Shown in pieces: positions 4,919-36,649 of a DNA stretch of 64,000 nt. Both the position numbers and the translations under genes were made by a program. The stretch is taken from NCBI GenBank assembly GCA_943373175.1, contig CALSBM010000002.1, positions 20,260 to 84,259 on the forward strand, written 5' to 3'. The number at the start of each line of letters is the position of its first letter. Position 1 is the first letter of the stretch. Origin of the DNA: Chitinophaga pinensis. GTDB taxonomy: Bacteria > Bacteroidota > Bacteroidia > UBA7662 > JAIXUI01. Under the pieces are notes generated by a model, which did not search any database, was not told where the DNA came from, and saw only the letters and a list, made by a program, of their open reading frames with translations.

Positions 4919-7900
4919 ATGAACAAAATAATCCTTTTTACAATCTGTATGCTGACGATGCTGGTGAGCCAGCGGTCTCATGCACAATTGGTGGTTTACC
5001 AAGTAAGCCCACAAACCACAACGGGCGGTAACCCGGGAGGAATCAATACTGATTCTGATACCTTATCCCGGTCATCTGGAAATGGGTTTACCCAGGTTTT
5101 AGGGCCAAACCAGATTTTTCCGATATACTCAGCTAAGCAAGCTATTCCTTTTAGTTTTCGTTTTGGAGGGCAGTTGGTTAGCGAGTTCGTTGTATCAACA
5201 ACCGGAATTCTGACTTTCGACACTAGCCGTGCAGGCGTGTTTTCTAGTCCGGTTGCAGGTGCTTTTACTTCTAACTTAATCCCAGATAAGTCTGTTGCAG
5301 TGTATTGGGAAAATTCTCCTTCTACCGGCACAAGCACCAATGACGTAGTAACCCGTAAGGTTTATGGAACAGCTCCTAACCGCCAGCTTTGGATTGATTG
5401 GTGTTCTATGGCAACAGGCAATGCTACCGACGCTTATTTCTCCGTTGTGATGGAAGAAACGACTAACAAAATTTATGTTGTCGATAAAAGAGTATTCACT
5501 GGAACCAACATAACCGGAACCGTTGGGGTTAAAGTAAGCAACACCAATTATGTTGAAGCCTTTGGCTCGCCGAATCTTGGTTTTACTTCTGGAACTCCTT
5601 TAGCCAATGACAACTACTATTACGAAATTTCGCAGCAAACGTATCAGACTGTAATTGGTCAAATTGGAACCGGAACCACCAACAACGCAGCAGGTGGATA
5701 TCCTTCTGTTTACGGCAATAACTTTTGGGGAGCAAAACATCAGTTCCTTATTCGCAAAAGTGAGCTTACAGCGTATTTAAACCGTCCACTTTTATCTGAG
5801 CTGAGTTTTTATGTAGTAACTCCGGGACAAGCTATCGCTTACAACAACTTTAGTATCAGCTTGAAAAATACTAATGCAGATTCTATAAACACTTTTCAAA
5901 CTGGATTTCAAACCGTCTATACCAATTCAAGCGTAGCAATCGATACAGGATGGAATAATCATCTCTTTAACAATCTCTTCCAATGGGACACTACTGGAAA
6001 CCTCTTGGTTGAAGTGTGTTTTAACAATACGGGCTTTACAGCCAACAACACCATTCTACAAAACACCCTCATGCCTTTCAGAAGCACGATGGTATTAAGA
6101 GGTGATAATGCAACAAATTGCTCAGGCCTTACTCCTTCATTTTCAGCTGATGTTAATCAATTCTTGAGACCTAACATGTTGCTAACTGGCATTGAAGCAT
6201 TCGCGGATTTGTTGCCACCGAGAGTTGACAGTCTAGGTCAAGTAGCTAGTTTGTGTAATCCCGCTCCAAAAACGGTAACTGCTCGTATTCTGGATAACCG
6301 GGGAGTGCTCAATGCAAGATTGATTTATTCCTTAAACAACGGCACTAACTGGGATACCGTTGCCATGACACTCAATGCAGGTCTGTACACTGGTAGTATT
6401 CCTGCCGGTACAGCAGGAGTAACGATACAATACACCGTTACAGCAGTTGACTCAGCAGGTAACATTACTGTTCCCCCTCCGGCTCTATCTTATCTCGATG
6501 GAGGATTAACCATCAATCTAGGCCCAGATCAAACCATTCCGGCAGGAGCTTCGGTAACTTTAGATCCTCAGGTAAACAAAGTACGGGGATTGAAGATTAC
6601 TGAAATGGTGCTTTCGAGAAATGCGATTTTTGCTAACCAGCTTCAACCAACTTATCCTTCTATCCTCGCTGGATTTACCGCATCAGATGAACTTATGGAG
6701 GTTCAAAATGTGAGTGACCAGCCGCTGAATGTTTCCGGTTTTACCATGGAATGGATAACAACTGGTGGGCCTGGAGGAGTAAATACCTATAGTGCAGTAA
6801 TTCCTACTGGCACAATTATACCGGCTGGCGGCTTTGTCTTCTTTGTCAGCGGTACTGTCTCTGATGCCAATAATCGCATTTTTGGCATGACAAGCCCTGC
6901 AAATGCGTATCAAACAGCTAATTCAGTAGGGTTTATTCTAAGAGATTCTGTAGGAAACATTGTTGATGTTTTGGCCATGAACGGCTTTAACTTCCCTGTT
7001 GCATCAGGTGTTACTGCTTCTGATTGGTTGGGTTCTATTCCTAGCAGTAACCAAAGAGCTGGCGTTCAGCGTATCAACGAAACTAACAACGCATCCGATT
7101 GGGTTATCACAACCGCAAATCAAATCATTACTTCCTTGGGAGCTACCAATGTTGGAATGACTAGTGATTATGCAAGCTACAGTTGGACGCGCACTAGCTC
7201 TGTTGGAATCTTTAGCACAGAACGGTCGGTTCAGGTAAGCCCAACGACAACCACAACTTACTTTCTTAATGCCGCCTCTAATAATTGTATAGTTCGCGAT
7301 ACTATTGTTGTGAATGTAATCGACTACTGTCAGGTTAGCACAGATTCAGTCCCGGTTTACATTCAGGAAGTTCTTTTTACTGGCTTGAGCAACTTTGGGT
7401 TCCCGACTACTAATGGCTATCAGTTTTTTAGTAATATATCTTCTCGTGTAATTCCAGGTTCAAGAAACAATATTCTGAGTGTTACTCCGGGATTTGTGAA
7501 TGGAACTGTCCCTGTTCATTTTAAAGCTTGGGTAGATTGGAATAAGGATGGTGACTTGTCTGATCCTGGTGAAGAAATTCTTAGTTCAGGCCCTGATACT
7601 ACCACTGTAAGACTTAACTATACTGTACCAAGTAACGCATCACAAGGCATTTCAAGATTAAGAATAGGAATTTTCACCACTTCTGGTGTTGGTCCATGCG
7701 ATACTACAGCGTTTGGTGATTTTCACGATTACCCCATTGAAATAGTTCCTTCATCTGTAGATACTAATAAACCAGTATTCGCAAGCTTGAATACCATAAC
7801 TCCTCAATGCAACCCTACAGCAAGGAGTATTCAGTCAGTTTGGTCTGATAACTTTACGGTTGACAGCGTTTATCTTGACTATTCAATCGACAACGGAGCA

Positions 7901-10900
7901 ACTTCTAACAGTGTTGCATTAACCTACCAGCTTGCAAACAACGAATGGACGGGCATTTTACCTGCAGGAATTAAAGGCACCAAGGTCATTTATTCAACTA
8001 GAGCAATCGACCATAGTGGTAATTCAAGAAGCTCTATTCTAAAATCATTTATCGATGGCGAATTCGTCGTACACGCAGGCAACGACACCACTGTACCTCC
8101 AACAAGTGGCGCCTTTAACAGAATTGCGAAAATTTCAAGGAATGGGCTTAAAATCTCTGAAATCCTTGTAAGTCGGGCTTCAACGGGCGCTCAAACTATT
8201 TGGCCAGCAGCACTACCTCAGGGAGGAAATGCAGATATGGTTGAAATTGCCAATACTATGGCTGTACCCGCAGATTTATCTGGCATGACCCTAAGAGTAC
8301 ATTTAATTTTTGGAGGTGGTCCAGGTGGGGGCGCTCAGAATTTGAACTTCGTTTTCCCTGCTGGCAGTATTGTTCCTCCCGGTCAAACGGCGGTTGCAAT
8401 TTATGCAACAGGTGGAAACAACCTTGCTAACCGAGTTTTTTACACCGGAAACAATTTCAATCTTTTCAATGCCAATGGTCAATTTGGGGTTGCATTAATT
8501 AATGTTGATAGTACTATTCAAGATGCATTTCTCGCGAACAACATCGTTCCAACCTCTATTATGGGAATAAGTGCCTCTGATTTTGTCGGGACGATGGCAA
8601 TCGGAGGAAACATTGCTGGTGTCCAACGTAATGTATTGACAGATTCTAATACTCCATCCGACTGGGTGCTAAGCAATGCTCAGCCTACAACTACTTCACT
8701 TCTCGCCTATAATTCCGGTGTTGGAGTTCGTTTAGCAAGTTATCAATGGAAAAACTTGGGTAACAATACGGTGCTATCCAATAATGATACGCTAACTATT
8801 ACAACCCCTACTTCAACTCAGTATGAAGTCGCGTTTACTGTTGATACTAATTGTACCGTTAAAGACACTTTCAATGTAACTGTTTCAACCGCATTTCTTG
8901 ATTTAGCTGTTGATAGTATTGTACTTCCAACAAGCTGTGTTTTGGGGGCAAATGAAATTATAAGAGTTAGAGTAAAAAATGTTGGGTTCAGTGCTTTAAC
9001 GATGAGCACTTCCCCTGTTACTGCCATCCTCGATGTCAATGGGGTGCCAACTACTTTAACCAGAAGCACAGGTACACTTGCTTTGAATGACACGATTTGG
9101 TTTCAATTTTCTGGAATTGATCTTACTGGCGCTCAGATTCCGGTTCGATATCAAATAAGCTCCTTGATTATAGTTAATGGTGACCTGGTAAGTTCCAACA
9201 ATACTAAAGGCCCCGAAGTAGTACTATCAGAACTGATTTCGGTTAATGCAGGTACTGATCAAACGATAGGGCCGGGAGTGACTACTACCTTAACAGCTTC
9301 TTCCAGCTTTGAGAGAATAGTGATTTCTGAAGTTATGCAGTCTAGAGGCAATACTGGTACTCAGGCTACTTTCCCACCAGCTATTAATACAGGGGGTGGA
9401 ATTGGCGGTCCAGATGTATTCGAATTTACTAATGTTGGCCCTAACCCAGTTTCCCTCTCAGGGCTTCAATTCCAAGCATTAACCGCAGGGGGTGGCCCAG
9501 GTCCTGGAACCGCTGTTAACTATACTTTCCCTAATGGGGTAATTCTGCCTCCCGATTCTATATTTACTGTTATCGCGGGAACAGGCACCAACGATACTAT
9601 TGGTCGTTACTTCTTCACTGGAGGTGGTAATAACAATCCAATCAACTCTACAGCTGCTATTGGCTATGTTTTAAGACGTGGAACAAGAATTATCGACGCT
9701 TTTGCAGTGAACAACTTCAATTTCCCGGTCGCTTCAGGTGTAACTGCCGATGATTGGAGTGGATCGATTAACGTTGCCAACCTTGCAGGAGCACAACGAA
9801 CAGGATTTGATAATAATACTTCCTCAAATTGGAGGGCCGACACAACTAACTTCCCTTCAACAATCGGTGCTAGAAATGCTGGATTAATTGCAACTCCTGG
9901 TAGCACACACTGGAGAGTACTCGGCAATACCACAAGCCTTGGCACATCTAACACTATTCAAGTAACCCCTTCTGCGACTTCAAACTACGTTTATACCTTA
10001 ACGGTCAACAACTGCCAATTCAGCGATACTGTTTTAGTAAACGTTTCTACTACATTCGTTGATTTAACACCAGATTCTATTCGTTTAGGAAATGGAGCTT
10101 GCGACAACAGCACTTTTGCTGACGTTGAAGTTAGAATTAGAAACATTGGATTAAGCACACTTAATGCAGCTATCAATCCAATTACATTGACTGCAACTGT
10201 TGGAGGAACTCCTACAACTTTTTTAATTAACAGTGGAACATTTGCTGCTAATTCTATTACATGGGTAACAATTCCCTCAGTTTCGCTTACTGGTCTTCAA
10301 ATCAATACATTCAACGCTGCTGTTGGAATCAAACTTAGTTGTGCGGTAGATATTTTGGCAAGTAACGACTCCTTAAATCCGGTTAGAATAATTAAGGCAC
10401 CGATGGCAGTTAGAGCCAGTAACGATACTACGGTCATTCCAGGTGGTACGGTTACCTTATCTGCATTGCCTACTCTTGGTAGCGTGGTGATTTCTGAGGT
10501 GTACTATGCTGCAAACGGGCAAGGTGCTCAGGCAGCAGGGTCATTCCCGACTGCAATTACTACTCCGGTAGGGGCCTCATTCATAGAAATTGCCAACAAT
10601 TCAACAGCGATAATGAACCTGAGTGGTTGGGTACTTGAATCTGTTGGTAACAGTCCATTAGCCATTTTTACTTTTACACTACCCTCATCCGCAGTTCTTG
10701 CGCCCGGCCAGGTATTGGTTTTAAGCAGCCAAACAGGAACTGCTGACACCGTAAATAAAGTGTATTTCTTGAATCTGGCGGCTAACCCATTTGCCGCAAA
10801 TAGAGCTTGGGGGTTAATTCTTCGTCAGGGCACAACGATTATGGATGCAGTCGCTTTCAATACGTACACTTTCTTACCAACCAGTGGGGTTACTGCATTC

Positions 10901-29455: not shown

Positions 29456-29887
29456 TTGAGTAGCATTCAAAAAGTTAATTACAAGAGTCCGGATGAACTT
29501 TTAAATCATCTTCCCGAAGAACAGGTTCTTATGATGGAATGGCTCATGCAATACATTTCGGAGGTACTTCCTGAGTGTACGATAAAAATGAACTTCAACG
29601 CGCCGTTTTATCGTAGGAAGAAAAATCTTGTTTACCTCTGGCCTTCTGCTCTTCCATGGGGAGGAATCACTACTGGGGTTGCTGTTGGTTTTATTCACGG
29701 TCATTTACTCAGTAACGATCAGGGCTGGCTTTCAATGGGTAATCGTAAGCAGATTGGAATCCGGGTATTTAACAGTGTTCAGGAGTTACAACAACAAGCT
29801 GAAATGTTGAACATGTACTTACTTGAGTCGGCAATGATAGAAGATGAGCTATCAGCACGCACAAAAAAAGCCGGAAGAACACCATAG
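29456..29887 (+). CDS. DUF1801/YdhG-like protein
   Basis: Size and pattern (LPEC...FNAPFY...LVYLWPS...GFIHGHLL...R.FNS) resemble DUF1801. TTG start. Confidence 0.65.
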   Translation: MSSIQKVNYKSPDELLNHLPEEQVLMMEWLMQYISEVLPECTIKMNFNAPFYRRKKNLVYLWPSALPWGGITTGVAVGFIHGHLLSNDQGWLSMGNRKQIGIRVFNSVQELQQQAEMLNMYLLESAMIEDELSARTKKAGRTP

Positions 29888-29900
29888 GCTCTTCCGGCTT
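29863..29900 (-). terminator. Terminator for the minus-strand polysaccharide module, overlapping the 3' end of the DUF1801 gene
   Basis: AAGCCGGAAGA...TCTTCCGGCTT, with an A7 tract on the left that reads as a U tract on the minus strand. Confidence 0.75.
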
Positions 29901-29921: not shown

Positions 29922-32141
29922 TTAGCTCAGCGTATAACTTTTTTCATTGAAGCTAAGGGTCAAAATCTTCTTGATAATTCTCCTTAACCTGCTTCTCTTC
30001 TTAGGCACTTCACCGAATACCGATTCTAGCTTATAAGGCGCAACAACATTGAGGAACAAAGAAATGTTGTTGTTGGTTGCTTTGCGGAATAAGTTCAGGG
30101 AATGATTATCAGAATCTGTCCAAACCTTATTGGCCGCAGCAATTAATACAGAATGGGTTGCTTGGCGAACAATCTGTACAGGAATTGGGTTATCAATCAA
30201 AGCCGGAAGCTCTAAGATGATTAGTTTAGGATTAATTAATCCAGGGTGGTCATCTGGTAGGAAATCGCTTAAGGAGGCGTAATCAACAAAGTTGGTGTGA
30301 ATGACATAACTGATGTCGTTATTGGAAACACGCTCTATATCGCGGTAATTCTTGTAGTTATTGACAGTTATCGGGTGAATGAAATAAACTCCATCCATGA
30401 TATCGGAGAATTTGTTGAAGAGTTTACTTCCAACCCAAGTTTTACCTACTTCAGTCTTAGTAGAGAAAAGCAGCAAAAGATTGTAAGGCTGAGGATTATC
30501 AACTTTTCCAAATTCGATTTTTATACTAGAAAGCGAGTGCTCAATGAGTGCAGCCTCCAAGTAGTCTAAGTCAATTAACTTCTCTGAGGGATCTATCAAA
30601 GGCAAAGCGCCCAACATATTGAGGCCGGTAGCCTGCTCTGCACGAGTGATTGATTTGAGTGTATTGTCTAAGAACTCGACCGTTACAAAGAATCCAAGAG
30701 CCAATACAAATCCGCCTATAAACGATACAACAATCAAAAGCGGACGTTTAGAAGGCTCAGGTTTCTGTGGGAAGAATGGCGCATCCACCATTTTAAGATT
30801 CGAAGACAACTCGATGTTTTGTTGACGCAATTGCGCCATGTTTAATCCATGGAGCAACTGAAGGTATTCCTTCTCAATGATATCAACGTTTCTATTGAGG
30901 CGATTTAAGGTTGAACCAAGAGGAGCAAATTGGTTGTAAATGCCGTCAAACTCGATTTTCCTTTTCTCAATAACCCGCATTTTGGCTTTGCTTTCATCCA
31001 GATTGAGGATGTTGTCGAGCCATTGGTTGAGTAAGTTTTGACGTGGCACCGATTCAATGGTGTTGTTTAACCTAAAATACTCATCAACCAACCTTCTGAT
31101 TTCTTCTTTTAACTGCTCAGTTTTCGATACCAGTTTAGCAATTTCCTGAGGGTTTTCATTGGCAATACGCGCATTAGCAAGAAGAAAATTGGCACTCGAA
31201 AGCTCGGAGCGTTTTTCCATAAGCTTTTGTGTGTTCATGAGTACCATACTACGTGAGCCTATTTTTTCTTCGAGGCGTTTAAGGGCAGCCTCAGCAGACT
31301 CAATCTCCATTTTCTCACGGTAGATTTCCTTTTCAAGTTCTTCCTTTGCTTCGGCTATATACTTAGTTTGCTCGTCGTAGTTGATGATTTTATTTTTAAT
31401 TCCAAAATCCCTCAACTCATCCTCGGCACCTTTCAGTTTTCCGAATGTTTTGGAAGTCTGGTCTGCGAAATAACCTACAACACTTTCTGTTTCTGAGCCT
31501 TTATTCCTTTTATACCTGGACATAAAGACATTAGCCAGTGTTACCAACGTTTGCTGAGTTACACCGGGGTCATTTCCTTTGAAGCTTAAGTCCAACATAT
31601 CGGAGCTTTGCTTACGTGCAACAGTCATGTTTCTGGTAATAGATGCAATTCCGTACGTGGGGTTGTCGGAATTGAGGAGCGAAATGATTTCGTTCTTGTA
31701 ATGGGCATTTTTATACCTGACAATATTGCCAACGGTATTTTCGAGTGAGTATTTATCTACGAGTTTATCTCTTAAACGGGCAGGGATAATCTCTTGCAAC
31801 TCTCTGAAACCACCTGAAGAAAGTAATTCTGCTTTAGGTTGGTTCAGCATTAAATGTTGAGCTAACAACCTCAGTGCTACTTCTTCGATGGTTTCCCTTG
31901 CCTTAACGGTTGCAATCAAGTTATCGAAGGCGTTATTTACCGCAAAGTAGTCCACCCGGGTCTCTTCGGTACTCATAATTGAAACACCAGAAGCAAGTCC
32001 TGTGTACATCAGGCAGTTTGACACATATTCCTTTTTCTCATTACGAGTGAAAAAGAATACGACCAGAGCCAGCGTGAGTGGAAAGAGCACCAGCCATCTA
32101 AGGTTTTTGATGATAATCCGAATAAAATCGACCAAGCTCAT
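29922..32141 (-). CDS. GumC/Wzc-like polysaccharide co-polymerase with degenerate P-loop C-terminal domain
   Basis: N-terminal TM, long coiled-coil periplasmic region, second TM (PLLIVVSFIGGFVLALGFF), then STKTEVGKT Walker-A-like motif. Confidence 0.8.
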   Translation of the reverse strand: MSLVDFIRIIIKNLRWLVLFPLTLALVVFFFTRNEKKEYVSNCLMYTGLASGVSIMSTEETRVDYFAVNNAFDNLIATVKARETIEEVALRLLAQHLMLNQPKAELLSSGGFRELQEIIPARLRDKLVDKYSLENTVGNIVRYKNAHYKNEIISLLNSDNPTYGIASITRNMTVARKQSSDMLDLSFKGNDPGVTQQTLVTLANVFMSRYKRNKGSETESVVGYFADQTSKTFGKLKGAEDELRDFGIKNKIINYDEQTKYIAEAKEELEKEIYREKMEIESAEAALKRLEEKIGSRSMVLMNTQKLMEKRSELSSANFLLANARIANENPQEIAKLVSKTEQLKEEIRRLVDEYFRLNNTIESVPRQNLLNQWLDNILNLDESKAKMRVIEKRKIEFDGIYNQFAPLGSTLNRLNRNVDIIEKEYLQLLHGLNMAQLRQQNIELSSNLKMVDAPFFPQKPEPSKRPLLIVVSFIGGFVLALGFFVTVEFLDNTLKSITRAEQATGLNMLGALPLIDPSEKLIDLDYLEAALIEHSLSSIKIEFGKVDNPQPYNLLLLFSTKTEVGKTWVGSKLFNKFSDIMDGVYFIHPITVNNYKNYRDIERVSNNDISYVIHTNFVDYASLSDFLPDDHPGLINPKLIILELPALIDNPIPVQIVRQATHSVLIAAANKVWTDSDNHSLNLFRKATNNNISLFLNVVAPYKLESVFGEVPKKRSRLRRIIKKILTLSFNEKSYTLS

Positions 32142-32153
32142 GGTTACAAATGT

Positions 32154-32924
32154 TTATTTTCTAAGCTTTGAAATGGATACTCCAACAGTAGTTTCCAACT
32201 GATTGAAGGCAATAGTGAAGGAGCGTTTGGCCATTTCAAAGTTATTTTCATTGATGGTTACCGTTTGCATGATTTGAGTATAAGATGCCAAGTCTAAGAC
32301 TCCATCACGAAAAGATTTTTCAGCGAGCACCAAATTGATTTTAGAAGACTGAGTTGCATCGTTATGAATCCTCATCAACCGATAAAAGGCGAGTACATCG
32401 TTGTACTCCATAATTATCTGACGACGCAACACTAACTCTGCTTCTTCTTTCTTGTATTTGGAAGCCTTCAAATCCATTTTGGTAGCATTAACTTTTGCTT
32501 GACGGCCAAAGATTTCATACAAAGGTAATCTGAGGTTTAATCCAAATGCGACTCCATTACTTAAAGTCGACGACTGCGCCTGTCCAAGCCCTGAATTAGA
32601 CTGTAGTATCAAATCCTGATTACCTGCTGTCACATTCACAAACGGAATCATCCCATTCATCCATGAATAGCGATCAACATTAATCTGTTGTTCGGTTTTG
32701 GATATCACGGCATCGTTAAACTTCAAGGTAGGGCTATTCTTTAGCGCAATTTTTACGATGGAATCAAGAGGCAGTAATTGTTCTGAAAGATCCTGTTGTA
32801 TGTCACCAAAAAGGGCAAGCTCATTTTCTAATAGTAACGAATCTTTTACTTGCGCCTTTAACTGAGGAGATAAAGCCCAAAAAATCAGAATTAGGCAGCT
32901 ATAGTTAGGCCACTTCAGTTTCAT
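32154..32924 (-). CDS. TolC/outer-membrane efflux family protein with a single OEP repeat (256 aa)
   Basis: Signal peptide, LDSIVKIALKNSP, two beta-strands (FVNVTAG, GLNLRLPLY) and long amphipathic helices ending QLETTVG. Confidence 0.75.
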   Translation of the reverse strand: MKLKWPNYSCLILIFWALSPQLKAQVKDSLLLENELALFGDIQQDLSEQLLPLDSIVKIALKNSPTLKFNDAVISKTEQQINVDRYSWMNGMIPFVNVTAGNQDLILQSNSGLGQAQSSTLSNGVAFGLNLRLPLYEIFGRQAKVNATKMDLKASKYKKEEAELVLRRQIIMEYNDVLAFYRLMRIHNDATQSSKINLVLAEKSFRDGVLDLASYTQIMQTVTINENNFEMAKRSFTIAFNQLETTVGVSISKLRK

Positions 32925-34121: not shown

Positions 34122-34499
34122 TTAGAGCCTGAGGCGGCGGAAAATGTTATCAATTCTAGCATCTAACTCTTCCGGATTGAAGGGCTTGACCAAGTAGTCA
34201 TCGGCTCCTGCTCTCAAGCATTTAATTTTGTCGGCAGTAGAATCATTTCCTGATAAAGTAATCAAGGGCAATTCCTTAAAAAGACCACTGGTTCGAACAT
34301 GTCGGATAAACTCGATACCGTTGATTTCAGGCATATTAATATCTGCAACAATGATATCCGGGATGTTTCCAGCTTGCAACCAACCCAATGCTTCCTTTCC
34401 GTTAGCTTTAGATACTACTTGGTATCTGCTGCCAAAATAAAGTTCAAGTAATTTAAGAATGGTCTTTTCGTCATCAACCGCGAGAAGCACTTTTTTCAT
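34122..34499 (-). CDS. Single-domain response regulator (receiver only)
   Basis: VDDE, DIIVADINMPEING, LSG and GADDYLVKPF show intact canonical residues. Confidence 0.93.
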   Translation of the reverse strand: MKKVLLAVDDEKTILKLLELYFGSRYQVVSKANGKEALGWLQAGNIPDIIVADINMPEINGIEFIRHVRTSGLFKELPLITLSGNDSTADKIKCLRAGADDYLVKPFNPEELDARIDNIFRRLRL

Positions 34500-36377: not shown

Positions 36378-36385
36378 TAAATTTG
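36378..36385 (+). promoter_or_regulatory. Promoter -7 element (TAAATTTG) for the small secreted protein
   Basis: TAnnTTTG located 18 nt before the ATG at 36404. Confidence 0.55.
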
Positions 36386-36403
36386 TGTTGTAAACTTAAC
36401 AAA

Positions 36404-36649
36404 ATGAAAAAATCACTTTTTGCACTTGCCCTTGCCGGTTTTCTGTTTGCCGGTCTTAACAATGCTAACGCTTGTGATGACAAAAAAGCAGCTTCTACAA
36501 AAGGCGCTAAAAAAGAGTGTAGCTCTTCTGACAAAGCATCTGCAACTGCTGCTAAGAAAGATGGCAAGACTGAAGGATGCGCAGACAGCAAAGAAGCTAA
36601 AAAAGGTGGATGTTGCTCTAAAGACAAAGCCGCTCCAGCTAAAAGCTAA
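36404..36649 (+). CDS. Small secreted Lys/Ala/Cys-rich hypothetical protein (81 aa)
   Basis: Clear signal peptide (MKKSLFALALAGFLFAGLNNANA), with its own promoter-like element and terminator. Confidence 0.8.
   Translation: MKKSLFALALAGFLFAGLNNANACDDKKAASTKGAKKECSSSDKASATAAKKDGKTEGCADSKEAKKGGCCSKDKAAPAKS

Follow-up and report, generated by a model that had tools for sequence, protein, structure and literature searches.

TolC-type outer-membrane factors (OMFs) with two repeats per subunit are found throughout diderm bacteria; the canonical form is a homotrimer with a 12-stranded barrel and a 12-helix tunnel, and in tripartite pumps one hairpin of the adaptor meets one TolC repeat. For Wzx/Wzy- and ABC-dependent polysaccharides, the described routes are octamers of Wza-type OPX proteins and composites of an OPX protein with a beta-barrel. 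TolC and Wza are both about 140 Å long. The complex formed by Wza and Wzc is an 8:8 assembly (PMC12881504).

We analysed a 64,000-nucleotide stretch of DNA from a genome assembled as Chitinophaga pinensis (GCA_943373175.1, contig CALSBM010000002.1, positions 20,260 to 84,259; hereafter the window), in which a predicted four-gene operon on the minus strand encodes, in order, a response regulator (RR), a phosphoglycosyl transferase (PGT), a TolC-family protein with a single OEP repeat (half-OEP) and a polysaccharide co-polymerase (PCP). The operon is flanked by housekeeping genes, a strong terminator-like hairpin lies directly 3' of the PCP stop codon, and the window's module contains no Wzx, Wzy or glycosyltransferase genes. 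The most informative feature of this locus is the conserved pairing of half-OEP with a PCP in loci that have no OPX gene, a feature absent from the initial annotation of this DNA. The occurrence of this pairing in many Bacteroidota points to an undescribed route for polysaccharides across the outer membrane; in the full-text literature and the main OPX papers, we found no published description of half-size TolC proteins or of a TolC-PCP pairing.

Table 1. Features of the half-OEP gene and its predicted operon, in positions of the window.
Feature	Position	Strand	Basis
Half-OEP, predicted single-repeat OEP/TolC-family outer-membrane protein, 256 aa	32154..32924	-	ORF and Pfam
Signal peptide, residues 1-25 of half-OEP, predicted cleavage LKA↓Q	32850..32924	-	Read from sequence
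OEP repeat, residues 53-248 of half-OEP	32181..32768	-	Pfam PF02321
Predicted transmembrane beta-hairpin, residues 95-130 of half-OEP, low-confidence outer loop	32535..32642	-	AF2 and co-variation
Single-domain response regulator (RR), 125 aa, first gene of the operon	34122..34499	-	PF00072 at 1.1e-26
Phosphoglycosyl transferase (PGT, Bac_transf) with N-terminal receiver-like domain, 397 aa	32926..34119	-	PF02397 at 3.5e-59
PCP-2a-type polysaccharide co-polymerase (PCP), 739 aa, with P-loop domain	29922..32141	-	GNVR and TIGR03007 matches
Intrinsic-terminator-like hairpin closing the operon	29868..29900	-	13-bp stem with 7 G-C pairs, then T run

The half-OEP protein matches PF02321 with an E-value of 9.6e-19 and a score of 68.4 bits (cut-off 22), and the match spans the complete profile of 187 positions (1-187). 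This is its sole Pfam match, with neither a second OEP repeat nor a Poly_export or SLBB domain found by Pfam, and the NCBIfam TolC and NodT models are matched over only half of their own length. Since the upstream stop codon lies 1 nt before the half-OEP ATG and the downstream PCP gene begins 12 nt past the half-OEP stop, there is no coding space for a second repeat on either side. The ORF, the single full-length match and these gaps bear out the initial annotation, which had described a 256-aa protein with one repeat and tight flanks, and its statement that there is no sign of a frameshift likewise stands: contigs from three other lake/freshwater metagenome runs vary over the half-OEP gene by substitutions only, with no insertions, deletions or joints, and comparison with an 88%-identical ortholog from a pond MAG (locus L001) gave a dN of 0.071, a dS of about 2.2 and a dN/dS of ~0.03. 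The half-OEP gene is intact and under purifying selection. No RNA run was among the sequencing runs that contain this DNA. Its product carries a Sec signal peptide, recognised by an N-terminal hydrophobic segment and an A↓Q site, and Gln25 is kept in at least 90% of 43 family members; glutamine at +1 after signal peptidase I cleavage is a Bacteroidota pattern, which both the cleavage site and the conserved Gln25 fit.

The other complete OEP genes of the same 3.07-Mb genome, which include at least seven two-repeat OMFs, are either 450-519 aa long with two repeats or RND-fused (two genes), and two further single OEP matches end at contig ends. By their sequence, two ORFs appear to be inner-membrane pump-TolC fusions: one of 1523 aa (contig C13, 30193-34764, +) ends in two OEP repeats and the other, of 1436 aa (contig C59, 12897-17207, -), has one detected OEP repeat. 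The N-terminal parts of both are RND-like as judged by sequence start and length, and a lipoprotein-like gene adjoins each. Elsewhere in the window, positions 222-21803 (+) contain a row of three giant ORFs (1518, 2309 and 3331 aa), and an ortholog of the 3331-aa ORF has a CHU_C (type IX secretion) C-terminal domain in precomputed Pfam annotation. An 88-aa ORF at 36383-36649 (+), overlapped by other ORFs in several frames, begins like a signal peptide or lipoprotein and ends in a tail rich in Lys, Ala and Cys (CC…C…C…CC); its product may be a small secreted protein that binds metal or sits at the surface.

When half-OEP was searched exhaustively with phmmer against 1.84 billion cluster representatives, 539 matches passed E<1e-3 and 226 clusters passed E<1e-10. 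Each of the 150 best relatives is matched over one stretch only, and 142 of the 150 are 215-330 aa long (median 253.5), the remainder being seven shorter fragments and one 625-aa fusion; word-indexed searches gave the same half-length picture. Where relatives carry a name, it is 'TolC family protein' or 'outer membrane protein TolC' only, and the named sources are Algoriphagus, Cytophagales, Prolixibacteraceae, Chitinophagales and Bacteroidia. We also surveyed 301 evenly drawn Bacteroidota genomes with a threshold of >100 bits; every match above this threshold lies in an open frame of 232-279 aa, and a half-length member is present in about 23 of the 301 genomes, some of which fall outside the window's own class. 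All named family members belong to the Bacteroidota, with few cluster members carrying names. As judged from these searches, half-OEP is a genuine and conserved single-repeat TolC-family protein that belongs to a half-length family.

The 625-aa fusion, P0149, comes from Cyclobacteriaceae MAGs (five cluster members) and joins an Acyl_transf_3 acyltransferase in frame to a half-OEP; in relatives of P0149 the acyltransferase is a separate gene directly upstream of half-OEP. We considered this fusion as an argument against an outer-membrane location and dropped it, as the signal peptide and its A↓Q site are retained at the junction. With this signal peptide intact before the half-OEP part (…VASA↓QD…), the mature half-OEP could still be cleaved off and exported.

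A single-sequence AlphaFold model of half-OEP was all-helix, with a pLDDT of 40.9, and was unusable; it was replaced by a model built with a 43-sequence alignment (pLDDT 85.9, pTM 0.72). This model contains helices at residues 53-63 and 65-91, strands at 95-104 and 121-130, a helix of 66 residues and about 100 Å at 141-206, and a return helix at 212-247. In a Foldseek comparison with the PDB, the top 39 matches were all OMF chains and none had another fold; they comprised TolC, OprM, OprJ, CmeC, CusC, SilC, VceC, MtrE and OprN, with alignments of 202-228 columns against chains of 400-490 residues, that is, about half of each target, and TM-scores of 0.49-0.60 when query-normalised and about 0.33 when target-normalised. 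The PDB holds no solved structure of a half-length OMF relative. Both halves of E. coli TolC can be aligned with the family profile, in which the glycine at the tip of the periplasmic helices falls on the TolC tip motifs; both the beta-hairpin and the tip motif are conserved across the family. The predicted fold of half-OEP is exactly one TolC repeat.

Mean-field DCA of 293 family sequences, equivalent to about 207 effective sequences, placed the hairpin pairs 103-119 and 92-131 first and third among the co-varying pairs and also recovered the helix-helix registers. A second enriched beta1-beta2 register was detected at i+j=227 (z=6.0), alongside i+j=222-223 (z about 3.5-3.8), a weak signal of the kind that a closed homo-oligomeric barrel would give, where strands have a second partner in the adjacent subunit. 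The weak co-variation fits two beta1-beta2 registers and hints at strand pairing between subunits.

We then compared 26 related loci, 22 of which are distinct. Half-OEP lies directly before a PCP of the same family in 15 of the 22 distinct loci, which represent several families, and the spacing in these adjacent loci ranges from a 61-nt overlap to a 12-nt gap. Eight loci (L001, L039-L041, L043, L045, L056 and L057) have an RR and a REC-fused PGT upstream of half-OEP. In six loci of a more distant half-OEP subclade the PCP is 3-7 kb away, and in two loci no PCP was found within 9 kb. One locus, L040 (genome G187, 7322-9732), has the RR, the REC-fused PGT and half-OEP followed by no PCP gene; the congeneric L039 has the full four-gene module. 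In the Pfam-annotated related loci, Wzx, Wzy_C and glycosyltransferase genes come next in the same gene string, with no Poly_export gene in the locus and no membrane-fusion protein or transporter genes in the string, and the remaining loci were scanned for RR, PGT, PCP and Wza only. No Poly_export gene lies within 9 kb of half-OEP in the 23 carrier genomes; 21 of these, including the source genome, have such genes elsewhere and two have none. One OPX-free genome encodes additional PCPs that have no neighbouring half-OEP gene.

The source genome encodes exactly two GNVR-type PCPs, one of which directly follows the sole Wza in a classic wza-wzc pair on contig C33, while the other follows half-OEP; half-OEP therefore sits in the positional slot of Wza. 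A phmmer search with the half-OEP-linked PCP alone gave no match in the PDB and a family profile was needed, which matched nearly the whole of both P. aeruginosa PslE (2.4e-24) and E. coli Wzc (1.1e-20); each solved entry of these two proteins contains 8 chains. Gly566 and Lys567 of its P-loop (STKTEVGKT) are invariant in the PCP family, and no tyrosine cluster was seen when the C-terminal sequence was read, so that the protein, with a P-loop and no tyrosine tail, may be a pseudokinase. The canonical Wzc of the source genome (C33, 27471-30044, +) ends in ~16 YG repeats. The PCP also has a weak HlyD-type coiled-coil match. The PGT matches TIGR03025 at 8.9e-72 and Response_reg at 5.3e-06, the latter below the cut-off, and the usual phospho-acceptor position of its receiver-like domain seems to be substituted (…DLVVSK…).

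Taken together, we favour with moderate confidence a reading in which half-OEP forms a homo-oligomeric duct that docks on the PCP and exports polysaccharide without an OPX protein. Half-OEP would be a secreted single-repeat member of the TolC/OMF superfamily that contributes one beta-hairpin and one helix pair of ~100 Å per subunit, and several identical subunits would close into a beta-barrel and a helical tunnel. The duct would dock on the periplasmic helical domain of the PCP-2a encoded directly downstream and would replace the Wza/OPX exporter in a Wzx/Wzy-type module, so that the polymer crosses the periplasm and the outer membrane, with synthesis switched on via the upstream RR and the REC-fused initiating transferase. 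We thus infer for half-OEP an outer-membrane location, homo-oligomerisation, contact with the PCP and a polysaccharide cargo. Several observations count against this model: the OPX genes elsewhere in 21 of the 23 carriers could act in trans, one related genome has the RR, PGT and half-OEP genes with no adjacent PCP, the PCP of the more distant subclade is distant or was not found, Wzx, Wzy and glycosyltransferase genes are missing from the window's module, and the extra PCPs of the OPX-free genome have no half-OEP.

With two strands and two helices per subunit, half-OEP could not form a TolC-like trimer, which would have only 6 strands, and the suggestion in the initial annotation of a larger ring than a trimer follows by logic from these numbers. 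Six subunits would reproduce the TolC geometry (12 strands and 12 helices), and eight would match an octameric co-polymerase. The initial annotation had also raised a possibly wider pore; this is possible but not required, because Wza at its narrowest is already tighter than the TolC lumen. We hold more tentatively, as something possible rather than expected, that eight half-OEPs form a 16-stranded barrel and a 16-helix tunnel that meets an octameric PslE/Wzc-like PCP tip to tip in an 8:8 assembly, which would be a third export machine, free of OPX and present in many Bacteroidota genomes. This arrangement is attractive if each PCP contacts one half-OEP and if the PCP is an octamer as PslE and Wzc are.

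Half-OEP could instead be an accessory outer-membrane or periplasmic partner, with the polymer leaving through a conventional OPX/Wza protein encoded elsewhere, such as the Wza on contig C33, an arrangement similar to that of class-3 OPX proteins with their separate barrels. The Poly_export genes of 21 of the 23 carriers, with one in the source genome, speak for this possibility, yet the single Wza of the source genome lies directly before its own canonical Wzc, none of the carriers has an OPX gene within 9 kb of half-OEP and two have no detectable OPX at all, and membrane pore and periplasmic tunnel are both already part of the predicted TolC fold; we consider an accessory role unlikely. A real duct might also carry something other than a Wzy-made polysaccharide, with the PCP-like protein serving as a membrane-fusion-type adaptor for a glycolipid, an oligosaccharide or a small molecule. 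Such a cargo would suit the weak HlyD-type match of the PCP, its P-loop domain without a tyrosine tail and the lack of Wzx, Wzy and glycosyltransferase genes in the window's module, but it is decidedly unlikely given that in relatives the same core is followed by exactly these genes (Wzx, Wzy_C and glycosyltransferases) in one gene string, that an initiating PGT is encoded directly upstream of half-OEP, and that the PCP profile matches nearly the full length of both PslE and Wzc.

That half-OEP forms no ring of its own, and either mixes with two-repeat TolC paralogs or acts as a non-channel helical scaffold, seems very improbable to us. There are at least seven potential two-repeat partners in the genome, but the family HMM barely detects these OMFs (8-42 bits), to which the family is only distantly related; moreover, the conserved genetic partners are a PCP and a PGT rather than efflux pumps, and the conservation of the beta-hairpin and tip motif also speaks against this reading. 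We give practically no credence to truncation, pseudogenisation or misassembly, for which short length is all that speaks, and rejected them on the basis of the hundreds of half-length relatives, the dN/dS of ~0.03, the intact signal peptide, the conserved synteny and the indel-free independent assemblies. Full-length orthologs, which a truncation would imply, were not what the length distribution showed, as the relatives are half-length too.

A maximum-likelihood tree that also included 20 two-repeat OMFs, split into N- and C-terminal repeats, recovered 61 half-length proteins as one clade (SH-aLRT 96) apart from both kinds of repeat and left the relation of this clade to the N versus the C repeats without resolution. 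We considered an origin from the C-terminal repeat, which profile comparison favoured (hhalign score 176 versus 132; median 77 versus 28 bits) with a full-length set chosen by its match to the half-OEP profile. The source genome's unselected paralogs, whose repeats were separated with a purpose-built generic OEP HMM, no longer showed the preference (median 16.5 versus 14.8 bits), and we lean neither towards nor against this origin. Because it vanishes with unselected paralogs, the apparent C-repeat affinity is largely a selection bias. The initial annotation had likened the protein to the pre-duplication ancestor of TolC, for which we find no support in this tree or in the distribution of the named members. 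A secondary, derived origin of the half-length proteins appears to fit better as the more parsimonious account, because the named members are all Bacteroidota whereas two-repeat OMFs occur across diderms.

If the preferred model of a PCP-docked duct is true, a TolC-like duct of half-size subunits tied to a co-polymerase would constitute a further export route, in a protein family carried by roughly one in thirteen of the sampled Bacteroidota genomes. Half-OEP would also give the TolC superfamily its first studied natural member with a single repeat, with a bearing on the evolution of the pseudo-sixfold TolC channel and on how pore width is set by subunit number. Should the 8:8 assembly be true, a single-repeat subunit would let the TolC architecture adopt the symmetry of its partner, and would offer a natural test case for the origin of the TolC alpha/beta-barrel from a single hairpin unit. 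The database label 'TolC family protein' masks both the half length and the proposed role of these proteins, which belong to a known superfamily and in which the architecture and the partner are new and the role probably so.

Among described systems, half-OEP shares with the TolC/OMF proteins (PF02321, TCDB 1.B.17; E. coli TolC, OprM, CmeC, OprJ and CusC) the repeat signature, the predicted fold of one repeat (short helices, beta-hairpin, ~66-residue helix and return helix), the signal peptide and the conserved glycine at the periplasmic helical tip. It differs from them in having one repeat in 256 aa rather than two in 420-500 aa, and in its genetic neighbours, which are a PCP and a PGT instead of a membrane-fusion protein with an RND, ABC or MFS transporter. 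With Wza/OPX (Poly_export, PF02563) it shares, by gene adjacency only, a place directly before a PCP-2a gene like that of wza in the C33 wza-wzc pair, and presumably also the role of building that half of a polysaccharide conduit through the cell envelope which lies in the periplasm and outer membrane. Wza, however, has an alpha-helical membrane barrel, whereas half-OEP would form a beta-barrel of unrelated fold with no Poly_export or SLBB domain, and the single Poly_export gene of the source genome is on another contig. The upstream arrangement of an RR and a REC-fused PGT, kept in at least eight genomes, recalls EpsW-EpsZ of Myxococcus xanthus (PMC12802240); in the window the PGT itself has the N-terminal receiver-like domain, and this likeness concerns the neighbours of half-OEP rather than half-OEP. 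The composites of class-3 OPX proteins and beta-barrels in Myxococcus (PMC9603273, PMC12819527, bioRxiv 10.1101/2022.04.04.486985) are, like the proposed half-OEP duct, an alternative outer-membrane route for Wzx/Wzy polysaccharides with a beta-barrel pore in place of the Wza helices; neither TolC nor Bacteroidota is mentioned in PMC9603273 or PMC12819527. These composites combine a periplasmic OPX protein with a separate single-chain barrel, whereas the half-OEP locus has no OPX gene and its barrel would be oligomeric and TolC-like.
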